Source: a virus (lineage: Duplodnaviria > Heunggongvirae > Uroviricota > Caudoviricetes). Taken from it: 10,428 nucleotides of DNA. Where the stretch lies: the IMG/VR virus record IMGVR_UViG_2541047776_000001, positions 1 through 10,428 of that record. One strand, given 5' to 3'. This document shows positions 6,001-9,000 of the stretch, piece by piece. Each line of letters opens with the position of its first letter. Positions within the stretch are counted from its first letter, which is position 1. Position numbers: made by a program.

Positions 6001-9000
6001 ATTTTTGTAGAGGCAACGATTCAAGCAAGTAAAGAAACTTACATAACCTCTGCAATACAATACGCACCAAAAAAAGGTGGTGTCGTTGAATCTGGTGACT
6101 ATATTTATCTGGCCACCCCTCAGGTTGAGGATGGTTCGTGTGTATCATCTTTTATTATATCAGGAACGACGGCGGCGACGCGCGCAAGCGATATGGTTAC
6201 AGTTCCGATTAAGAATAATCTTTATAATCTTCCTTTTACGGTTCTTTGTGAGGTACATAAGAACTGGTATAAAACGCCAAATGCAGCGCCACGTGTTTTT
6301 GATACCGGCGGTCATCAAACCGGAGCGGCTATTATTCTTGGCTTCGGATCTTCGGCAGATGGGCCAGACGGATTTCCTTATTGCGATATTGGTGGATCAA
6401 ATAGGCGTGTTAACGAAAACGCATCGTTGAAAAAAATGGTTATGGGGATGCGTGTAAAGTCAGATCAGTCTACATGTGCAGTAAGTAACGGGCGTATATC
6501 CAGCGAAACAAAAACCACATGGGAATATATCCGGAGTACAGCAACCATTCGCATTGGTGGACAAACTACAGCAGGATTACGCCATTTATTTGGGCATGTG
6601 AGGAATTTTCGTCTCTGGCATAAAGAGCTAACAGATGCGCAGCTTGGGGAGGTTGTGGAGTGAGAGATTTCACGTTGCGTTTCAGTGATAAAGCAGATTT
6701 CAGGGCATTTCTCAGGAAACTTAACTGGGAAGAGGACGAAGAGCTGCAGAATGCCGTTCTGGTTGATGAGATTGGTTTTACGTTCAGGGAGACAGATGTT
6801 TCTGATGACGGAGAACCAGAATACACGCGAAACGAAGGGTACTTTGTTAATATCCGTCTTCTTGACGATGGATTTGATGATTCCGTGTTCCGTGAGTGGG
6901 TGGTTACACCAGAGCGCCCGCTCAGGGAGTGGTTTTAAGGATAGCAGATGGATATCACGTCGATACTTCATGCGCTTTGTGCCGTGGCGGTGCAGGTACT
7001 GGCTGGTCTTTTTACCGGAAACTGGGCTTACGGGGCGATAGCCGGTTGTACGTTCTTCATTGCGCGTGAACACACCCAGGCAGAATATCGCTGGATTGAA
7101 ATGTTCGGGCATGGCAAGCGGATTAACATGCCGTGGTGGGGCGGTTTTGATCCACGTGCATGGGATGTGGCAAGCCTGATGGATTTTGCTGTGCCGGTGG
7201 TGGCGTGTCTGCTGGTCTGGCTGTTGGTTAATCGTGGGTGAAAAAGGTGAGCAGTATATGCAACGAAGGAGGAAACATCATTGCTGGCGGCATGGAAGGC
7301 ATGCAGGGTGTTGCTGAACCGTGTTGATACATCAACTGCACCTGATATTGAGTGGCCTACGAACCCTGTCAGGGAGTAATCATTGGGATTATGCCGCAGC
7401 ACGTCTTAAGCAAGAACGTGCTGCGGTTGGATGCTATTTTTTCCCTGAAGCGGAAAACATTACTACAGTACCTTGAACCTTGGTTTTAACATTCTCGAAA
7501 TGCTCTGAGAGTATATGTGTTAAGCCTTCTTCGGAATCTTTTGTGTTTGAAAAGATGCCTTTCTGATTGTAAATGCGCATCAGTTTTTGACCGAAGCTAT
7601 TGTGCACAACGCCGTCACCAAGAATTGTGGCTCCGTATAGAGTTCCATCGTCAGTTAAGGCCTGCGCCGCATTGCGTATTACACAGCTTTTTGTAGATAT
7701 ATTTCCAGGCAGGCAGTGAAGAAGGTAAAACATGGAAATGGAATCAAATTGACCATGTAACGCCGCGGGATAAGGATCAAAAACATCATGGCTAATTTTA
7801 TGTTTAATTTTTGATTCCCCAGCCCTTGTCGATGCCGCGTTCAGGCTAGCTTCGTTCAAATCCATTAAAGATATCAGACTACTCTCAGGTACGTGAGTAA
7901 GGTAAAACCCAGTTCCAACGCCAATATCCAGATGGTTGTTACCTAAATGTTCCAGAAAGTGTGGAAGAAGGTGTTCCTTTGTAGGACATCCCCATGCAAG
8001 CCGATTTGATACTCCCAAAACCCACCAGTCATAAAGCTTTAGGGTAAGTGGTGTGTAAATTTTAGCCCCATCATCTGTGTTTTTTTTCATTAGTTTCACC
8101 GTATTATAGTTTTATTTGTGAATTAAATCAATTATGGCGATGAATTACAAGGGGTTAAATGCTGCCGCAGCATAGCGATATTGAAATAGCCTGGTATGCT
8201 TCGATACAGCAGGAGCCGAATGGCTGGAAGACCGTCACCACACAGTTCTACATCCAGGAATTCAGTGAGTATATTGCGCCACTGCAGGATGCTGTAGATC
8301 TGGAAATCGCAACGGAGGAAGAAAGATCGTTGCTGGAGGCATGGAATAAATATCGGGTATTGTTGAATCGTGTTGATACATCAGTAGCTCTGGGTATGAA
8401 GCTGTTTGTAACTCATGTTACAGTAACAGCCATTACTATCTCGAAGGTGCAAAATGTATATTGATTTGATATTTTATAAATTTACTTCGAATCTGGCACG
8501 TCAACTTTTGATTAAAGTAATATCAGTTTTCGGCGAAAAAAGGACCGTGTACATGAGACGATTTCATACAAGAATAACAAAAATATGAATATGCTCCCAA
8601 TGCAATATATGTTTTGCATTGGGAGCAAATAGCGGAATATTTTGAAATTATTGTATTTCTGCTTCAGAATTTCCTGGGCAGTATATATTTTCTGGTTTTT
8701 GTGGAGTGATCAGGTGATGTACAACTGCTTTATCTACACATAAATTAACTCCGGTGAGAGCTAATGTATGCCCATCACCATTTATTGTTAGTAACGGGCT
8801 GGAAAATTTCTCTGCCATCTTACGGGCATTAATCCAGGGCGTTGTTGGGTCGTATTTGTGTGCTACAAACAGTAAACCAGAGGGCAGAACAGTATTTTTC
8901 AGGCGAGTTTTGTTCAGGTCGCTATGTATTGGCCATAATTCACAAAAATCAGGTGAATCGGAACGTCCATTGTCAAAGTTAATAGCCGGGAAGGCATTCG

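Follow-up and report, generated by a model that had tools for sequence, protein, structure and literature searches.

The window analysed here is a stretch of 10,428 nucleotides (nt) from a virus of the class Caudoviricetes (IMG/VR record IMGVR_UViG_2541047776_000001, positions 1 to 10,428), and it covers the end of a lambdoid prophage, from extra-intestinal E. coli, at which the tail fibre is encoded. Directly behind its side tail fibre gene, stf, lies a small acidic open reading frame (ORF; 6660..6938, + strand), referred to below as the small ORF. This ORF was found to be strictly linked, and coupled stop to start, to one type of fibre head across at least six phage lineages. On sequence grounds, the small ORF would encode a head-specific accessory made together with the fibre, most likely a trans-acting assembly chaperone, a reading to which we assign a probability of about 0.5.

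The stf/small-ORF junction reads ...GGGGAGGTTGTGGAGTGAGAG... The GTG start codon (6660-6662) overlaps the stf stop codon TGA (6661-6663), which gives a 4-nt overlap, GTGA, at 6660-6663. A Shine-Dalgarno-like stretch, GGGGAGG (6646..6652, + strand), can be read within the last stf codons, with GGAGG at 6648-6652, 7 nt 5' of the GTG. A sequence-only reading of the window had placed the ORF at 6646-6938; its end is correct, and its start is at 6660, position 6646 being the first base of the Shine-Dalgarno stretch. The same reading described a GTG start that overlaps the stf stop behind a Shine-Dalgarno sequence, and a very acidic 92-residue product, and both are as described. The product of 92 amino acids (aa), followed by a stop codon, has an isoelectric point (pI) of 4.26, with 24 D/E against 12 K/R residues. 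It is hydrophilic (grand average of hydropathy, GRAVY, −0.74) and has no signal or membrane segment. The acidity is kept in 52 distinct homologues (pI 4.05-4.41, net charge −7 to −18). No promoter-like or terminator-like sites were present between 4597 and 7241. A purine-rich ribosome-binding stretch was present at all seven of the homologous junctions inspected.

The small ORF is a real gene under purifying selection (median omega, the ratio of non-synonymous to synonymous change, about 0.3). It gave a full-length match to phrog_1361, which is annotated "unknown function" (E 1.1e-40), with all 92 residues aligned to the 92 positions of the profile, and the homologues in phages AKFV33 and CarlMeissner and in one distant prophage were assigned to phrog_1361 or to the related phrog_18574, in which distant members are grouped. 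A tblastn search with the small ORF found matches in 191 phage records. A HMMER search of 1.84 billion representative proteins returned 56 relatives; with giant PKD-repeat proteins removed, these were 37-150 aa long, and many were fragments or frameshifted calls. The homologues span 98% to 30% identity, with the start, the length and the core residues kept. The residues conserved down to 30% identity are M1, D3, L6, F8, D36, I38, G39, G60, V63, N64, R66, R89 and W91. Non-synonymous differences were fewer than synonymous ones (pN < pS) in 64/66 and 45/45 pairwise comparisons, and synonymous sites were saturated between lineages while the protein was kept. Where synonymous divergence (dS) was measurable, omega was about 0.32 for loci like the window and 0.18 for loci that carry a second fibre gene. 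Longer spurious ORFs in other frames do overlap the same stretch (6465-7112, − strand; 6685-7041, + strand), as would suit a chance open frame across the end of stf; this explanation is countered by the full-length profile match, the conserved start, length and core, the omega values of 0.18-0.32 and a confident AlphaFold2 model, and it is already refuted by the present data. The family is catalogued (PHROGs, FIG and VOG identifiers, RefSeq WP_001204581.1) as 'hypothetical' only. A literature search found no paper that assigns it a role, including the papers that model or image the partner fibre, and the lambda fibre-engineering papers in that search do not mention it.

The linkage to the fibre head was assessed from both sides. 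Loci were first collected through the ORF, from phage records, IMG/VR contigs and contigs encoding distant homologues. The small ORF was detected in 97 of these, and one more locus ran off its contig end. In 97/97, the small ORF started no more than about 10 nt from the stop codon of a long fibre ORF (550-1490 aa), with an overlap of 4 nt or 1 nt in nearly all. The fibre ended in the motif HLFGH[IV]RN[FL]R[IV]WH[KR]xL[TN]DxQ in the 52 distinct ORF/fibre pairs examined; in one further pair (locus L080) the terminal motif was missing, where a frameshift is likely. Conversely, in all 77 testable loci found through the head, which were IMG/VR loci of sufficient length, the small ORF began at a distance of 0-14 nt from where the head match ended. 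Across the phage collection, 205 records matched the head and 191 the small ORF, with the same taxon split. The gap of 14 records is at least partly a matter of tblastn sensitivity, since AKFV33 and phiG7, which were among the head matches and outside the sampled list of ORF matches, both encode a divergent member of 88 aa at this position (profile E 1e-23 to 1e-26). No natural fusions of the fibre with the small ORF were seen among the retrieved proteins, the longer 'homologues' being frameshifted or mis-assembled calls.

The pair was present in lambdoid phages (mEp460_4F5, PhiR40_1, 2G7b), T1-like Drexlerviridae (KarlJaspers), T5-like Demerecviridae (IrisVonRoten, AKFV33), rV5-like myoviruses (CarlMeissner, EmilHeitz), Dhillonvirus (rolling) and Seuratvirus (phiG7), as well as in distant prophages at 30-38% identity. 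The sequence-only reading had suggested a factor specific for the distal fibre domain, which should then co-occur with that domain in other genomes. Such co-occurrence was seen in both directions (97/97 and 77/77) across six lineages; the ORF is conserved beside homologous heads, and no match to an unrelated, defence or moron family was obtained. Records labelled 'Campylobacter phage' or 'Listeria phage' (MG065652-MG065676, OR847733, OR849447) carry modules that match E. coli rV5-like or T5-like phages, with a small-ORF protein 99-100% identical; these are probably contaminant or mislabelled assemblies.

A product that is small and very acidic (pI 4.26) could also be cargo unrelated to the fibre, such as an acidic DNA mimic active against restriction or defence systems, or a moron for lysogenic conversion, hitch-hiking beside a fibre region that is prone to recombination. 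Many DNA mimics are small and very acidic, and the zone downstream holds a methyltransferase and a hydrolase of a PADLOC candidate family, with ompT nearby. However, the small ORF sits inside the late structural operon of strictly lytic T5-like, T1-like and rV5-like phages, always joined stop to start to one head type, and this strict coupling makes hitch-hiking cargo or a DNA mimic very unlikely. A hitch-hiker would not remain linked in 97/97 and 77/77 loci over six lineages with completely changing flanks. Further, the small ORF has no promoter-like site of its own, and it gave no match to PADLOC, Pfam or NCBIfam families. The features that mark DNA mimics of the Ocr/ArdA type, namely acidity combined with early expression and a DNA-mimic fold or family match, were not found together in the small ORF.

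The partner of the small ORF is most likely the upstream head, which is common to all loci, since the ORF is kept, with the same residues, where a second fibre is absent. Phage ev243 was 96% identical in DNA to window positions 6428-7300, a stretch that begins 235 nt short of the stf stop codon and extends over the small ORF and the ORF that follows it, whereas over the last 287 head residues as a whole the two proteins were only about 68% identical. This jump in identity points to a recombination joint inside the head, such that the last ~78 fibre residues travel with the small ORF.

The stf gene (4597..6663, + strand) encodes 688 aa from a GTG at 4597; the RefSeq start is the ATG at 4603 (686 aa), and the RefSeq product name is 'prophage tail fiber N-terminal domain-containing protein'. 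The protein, Stf, has a lambda-type N-terminal anchor (PF08400 on residues 3-133, E 1.4e-69), a repeat shaft rich in Ala, Ser and Thr, and a non-lambda distal head, with phrog_1419 matching the distal part. The head module comprises about residues 258-688 (5368..6660, + strand), from PLPDVWIPFNDSL to the terminal motif HLFGHVRNFRLWHKELTDAQ, and these distal ~430 aa align end to end across 11 lineages. A first homologue search for the head returned near-identical sequences only, and a profile search returned sequences 50-87% identical. Stf is 55% identical to gp22 of IrisVonRoten over a 584-aa alignment, and the distal ~430 aa are closely similar. The head matched NF048003 GTA_spike_fiber (phage head spike fiber) over Stf residues 331-530, with 50.4 bits against a cut-off of 36, and it matched the RcGTA head-spike fibre Rcc01080 (PDB 6TB9; E 3.2e-6). 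As judged from these matches, the head appears to be a lectin-like sugar-binding module that is related to the RcGTA head-spike fibre and not to lambda Stf/Tfa. The earlier description of a 'swapped' distal domain is supported: the head is related to the head-spike fibre and to carbohydrate-binding modules, it is not lambda-like, and relics of tfa flank it.

Within the head, a variable beta-sandwich sub-domain (Stf about 344-508; 5626..6120, + strand) resembles carbohydrate-binding modules and is a probable glycan-binding surface. Two stretches of the head are variable, at Stf about 344-480 (5626-6036) and 568-630 (6298-6486), with a mean pairwise identity of 0.27-0.45, whereas the flanks reach 0.6-0.77. 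The first of the two corresponds to the beta-sandwich resembling a carbohydrate-binding module, and both are likely determinants of glycan specificity. The model of this central domain has a beta-sandwich fold of the same kind. The last 150 head residues are mildly basic (median +4). Laminin_G_3 (PF13385), a profile of the concanavalin-A-like lectin type, gave a weak match to the last ~150 residues of Stf, covering the last strands only (E 0.11, 13.1 bits against a gathering score of 27.6), and the precomputed matches of this type in distant homologues were graded 'weak' or 'faint'. The S74 signature (PF13884) was found in neither Stf nor the small ORF by the Pfam scan.

Published work on related fibres fits this assignment. 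The RcGTA head-spike fibre binds capsule polysaccharide, with one subunit per head spike (PMC7296036), and gp22 of IrisVonRoten is modelled as a proximal fibre with a protruding 'galectin-like' domain (PMC11990801). In a fibre atlas, the 'lectin-like head D69' of EmilHeitz is reported to replace the S74-ended terminus of an otherwise equivalent rV5-like fibre, with confirmation by cryo-electron microscopy (PMC12143355). The EmilHeitz fibre matches the Stf head, and EmilHeitz also carries the small ORF; 'lectin-like head D69' appears to be the same head type as that of Stf.

The small-ORF product was modelled with AlphaFold2 from 21 homologues as a single confident domain, with a predicted local distance difference test score (pLDDT) of 91 and a predicted template modelling score of 0.77. 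The fold is strand-helix-helix-four strands-helix, with three helices. The conserved C-terminal P-x-R-x-W tail is less ordered in the model and would fit a docking peptide. A Foldseek search of the model against BFVD returned uncharacterised phage proteins of 64-105 aa only, and the best match of a profile search among PDB sequences had E 0.034, so that no solved relative was found. The Pfam-A scan yielded two sub-threshold chance matches only (Nore1-SARAH and Herpes_UL42), and no profile match to T4-type fibre helpers such as the gp38 adhesin/chaperone. The absence of resemblance to lambda Tfa that had been claimed for the product also stands, as no PF02413 match was obtained at E <= 0.1 in a scan that does detect a tfa relic further downstream. 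Membership of the PKD or Ig-like repeat families was considered and rejected; in the giant proteins no single repeat scores above 10 bits (per-domain E >= 9e4), apparent significance arises only from adding up the repeats, and an all-beta fold of this type is at odds with the three helices of the model.

The gene that follows the small ORF was classifiable in 79 of the 89 loci with a small-ORF match at that stage. In 46 of these, including the window, a membrane ORF of 95-146 aa (mostly 97) begins 9-12 nt after the small ORF. In 31/79, a second fibre gene of 225-586 aa takes this place, starting 9-12 nt after the small ORF, or overlapping its end in two; there was also one truncated 64-aa copy. 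Examples are found at 4270-4947 in locus L001, 5289-7013 in L003, 4292-5329 in L007, 5315-6313 in L089, 4157-5830 in L178 and 4071-5831 in L179. The second fibres are highly diverse, yet they have one peptide in common at the N-terminus, M-[AVT]-T-x-T-x-IP-x-DI-x-x-LK, and all those tested have an S74 chaperone domain (PF13884) of their own, which implies that they need no chaperone in trans. The 'putative lateral tail fiber chaperone' of KarlJaspers is really a mini-fibre, composed of this plug peptide, a short coiled coil and an S74 domain.

A position between a proximal and a second fibre in 31/79 loci raises the possibility that the small-ORF protein is a structural connector, held on the virion at the end of the lectin-headed fibre as a socket for the N-terminal peptide of the second fibre, which would yield branched fibres. 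The peptide shared by otherwise diverse second fibres is consistent with this. A distant prophage has the three genes in this order too, at 33% identity, as do AKFV33 and phiG7, and the stop/start coupling would suit a component made in fixed proportion to the fibre. In IrisVonRoten, the GenBank label of the small-ORF homologue is 'tail fiber protein', and in published models the T-shaped fibre gp24 is joined to gp22, which is homologous to the Stf head (PMC11990801). However, the available part of the text on that gp22-gp24 model makes no mention of the small-ORF protein, and the virion proteomics of AKFV33 was limited to four large gel bands and did not cover a protein of 10-11 kDa (PMC3326045). 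The 46 loci without a second fibre, among them the window, mEp460_4F5 and PhiR40_1, nevertheless keep the ORF under purifying selection. In one distant prophage (L094), no phage-related gene lies beyond the small ORF, which is the last phage gene there, and in another (L097) the next gene is regulator-like. Loci with and without a second fibre agree in their conserved core residues, and no extra positions are conserved when one is present, which argues against a connector. We regard a connector as the main rival reading, less likely than the assembly chaperone.

A stronger form of the connector is improbable. It would make the small-ORF protein a permanent virion subunit that caps lectin-headed fibres and serves as a universal socket for interchangeable second fibres, each bringing a plug peptide of ~20 residues and its own S74 domain. 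If true, the socket and its fibres would form a portable three-part kit for branched receptor-binding fibres, common to siphoviruses and myoviruses, and loci like the window would be the empty-socket version.

For the assembly chaperone, the following sequence of events is envisaged. The small ORF encodes a soluble, strongly acidic alpha/beta protein, which the data establish as a dedicated, co-translated partner of the upstream head module. It would be translated by re-initiation at the stf stop codon, and the product would probably be made when and where the C-terminus of the fibre is made, perhaps in amounts comparable to the fibre. The product could then bind the head at its C-terminal part, which is conserved and mildly basic, and assist the three fibre chains in folding or in finding their register, after which it would be released or stay on the fibre. 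It would thus be a functional counterpart of lambda Tfa, or of the C-terminal S74 chaperone that this head lacks.

The chaperone reading is suggested by position, by coupling and by the lack of an intramolecular chaperone in this head. An assembly factor is favoured over a connector because the small ORF occupies the tfa slot with a tfa-like stop/start overlap, where only relics of tfa remain; because the second fibres bring their own S74 domain while the head has none; and because the ORF is kept and constrained where there is no second fibre (omega about 0.32). The strict linkage, which survives transfer between unrelated genomes, counts for a dedicated partner, and the acidity of the product, set against the mildly basic end of the head, would favour binding.

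Several observations weigh on the other side. In RcGTA, the homologous head-spike fibre consists of one flexible subunit (PMC7296036), and in the model of IrisVonRoten gp22 the galectin-like domain protrudes from the fibre (PMC11990801); the head may therefore fold alone, with no need of a trimerisation helper. A location between two fibre genes, as seen in about a third of loci, suits a connector just as well. The identity of the ORF co-varied with that of 40-residue windows throughout the head (r 0.4-0.65), was highest at the adjacent end and showed no discriminating peak, and this comparison is confounded by shared ancestry and adjacency. The monomer model of the head (mean pLDDT 52) was confident in the central beta-sandwich alone and says nothing on the proposed C-terminal binding region.

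The surroundings of the small ORF in the window are those of a rearranged lambdoid locus. The 97-aa hydrophobic ORF (6948..7241, + strand) starts 9 nt after the small ORF and is the next gene of the same apparent transcription unit. It matched phrog_1443 (E 6e-58; 'putative membrane protein' in phage 21) and has a GRAVY of +0.57. In relatives with a second fibre, this membrane ORF comes behind that fibre. It is far more widespread than the small ORF and is not tied to it, since in 2G7b, which shares the flanks of the window (membrane ORF, methyltransferase, tfa relics and hydrolase), it follows an extra fibre gene inserted between the two. Beyond it lie a first tfa relic that lacks its N-terminus (7260..7379, + strand; a RefSeq pseudogene in strain S88, at 7961-8080 of locus L008, an offset of 701), a class I S-adenosylmethionine (SAM)-dependent methyltransferase (7434-8099, − strand) and a second tfa relic (8159..8464, + strand). 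The statement that fragments of tfa remain downstream is correct; PF02413 matched 8159-8464 (E 8.9e-18) over positions 75-121 of 131, the C-terminal third of the Caudo_TAP profile only, and S88 has two N-terminally truncated tfa pseudogenes in RefSeq, equivalent to window positions 7260-7379 and 8252-8464. The relics thus flank the methyltransferase, which is on the opposite strand, and the same set is present in 2G7b and twice in the S88 chromosome beside ompT copies. The region looks like an old lambda-type stf-tfa locus overwritten by a lectin-head cassette and by cargo insertions. A secreted-looking alpha/beta hydrolase of 494 aa (8648-10132, − strand) follows; it matches the PADLOC candidate defence family 'C3a206, TAP-like protein' (E 4.4e-57) and is found at the prophage end near ompT in S88.

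Upstream of stf, the window contains lom (3939-4538) and the 3' part of J, which is cut 26 bp before its stop by an inserted element. The element (about 1384-3837) has three ORFs, at 1465-1869, 1866-2213 and 2262-3800, in a tnpA, tnpB, tnpC layout, and we take it to belong to the IS66 family. An 8-bp S88 sequence is duplicated at both of its ends, and the junction is intact in strain S88. With the insertion, J has lost its own last ~9 codons, in which the receptor-binding part ends, to replacement by element sequence, and this prophage copy may for that reason be adsorption-defective. The S88 prophage is 98.9% identical to window positions 4580-10428, and the 1 kb around the small ORF (6300-7300) is 100% identical in strains S88, APEC O18 and PMV-1.

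Re-targeting of phages, and of delivery particles derived from them, relies mainly on the fibre genes, and a chimeric fibre that lacks its cognate helper often fails. The block of fibre end, small ORF and membrane ORF was present at high coverage in 365/5,426 complete E. coli genomes; partial matches were seen in 1,918 E. coli genomes, most of them probably on the membrane-ORF part, as is the case for the phage matches. The head type is found in many phage records of several lytic lineages, isolates of the BASEL collection included. Should the small-ORF protein be needed for folding of the head or for carriage of a second fibre, it must move with the head in engineered constructs, and it would represent a new helper family unrelated to Tfa, gp38, gp57A or S74. 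Should it be dispensable, a common 'hypothetical protein' label could be replaced by 'fibre-head-associated protein'. The role of the small ORF would be of use to fibre engineers and is easy to test.

Among the closest known systems are lambda Tfa, Mu gpU and P2 gpG (PF02413), which, like the small ORF, lie directly after the fibre gene with a stop/start overlap; at the lambda stf/tfa junction, this overlap is 1 nt. Proteins of the Tfa type are small and cytoplasmic, their presence tracks the distal domain of the fibre, and they are the expected functional analogue of the small ORF. The S74 chaperone (PF13884; T5 pb1, K1F endosialidase) has a corresponding location, at the very end of the sequence that codes for the fibre, and in rV5-like phages the lectin head, accompanied by the small ORF, substitutes for the S74-ended terminus (PMC12143355). 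The S74 chaperone differs in being a cleaved domain, whereas the small ORF encodes a separate polypeptide, and in the relatives S74 is found in the second fibres instead. Fibre connectors (the T4 gp35/gp36 hinge; DT57C LtfA-LtfB, PMC4728585, PMC10713586; the T-shaped fibres of IrisVonRoten, PMC11990801) are likewise situated between proximal and distal fibres, as the small ORF is in about a third of loci. However, LtfA of the DT57C type ends in an S74 domain and has a head of another family, and unlike in these branched-fibre systems, the small ORF persists in loci without a distal fibre. Rcc01080 of RcGTA and the 'lectin-like head D69' and 'galectin-like domain' of BASEL phages are relatives of the partner head and not of the small ORF, and the papers on these head domains (PMC7296036, PMC11990801, PMC12143355) make no mention of a small downstream gene. 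A helper gene behind a fibre gene is an expected kind of thing and would not surprise a specialist; the new elements here are the family and its fold, the fact that it pairs exclusively with one head type, and its distribution over both siphoviruses and myoviruses.

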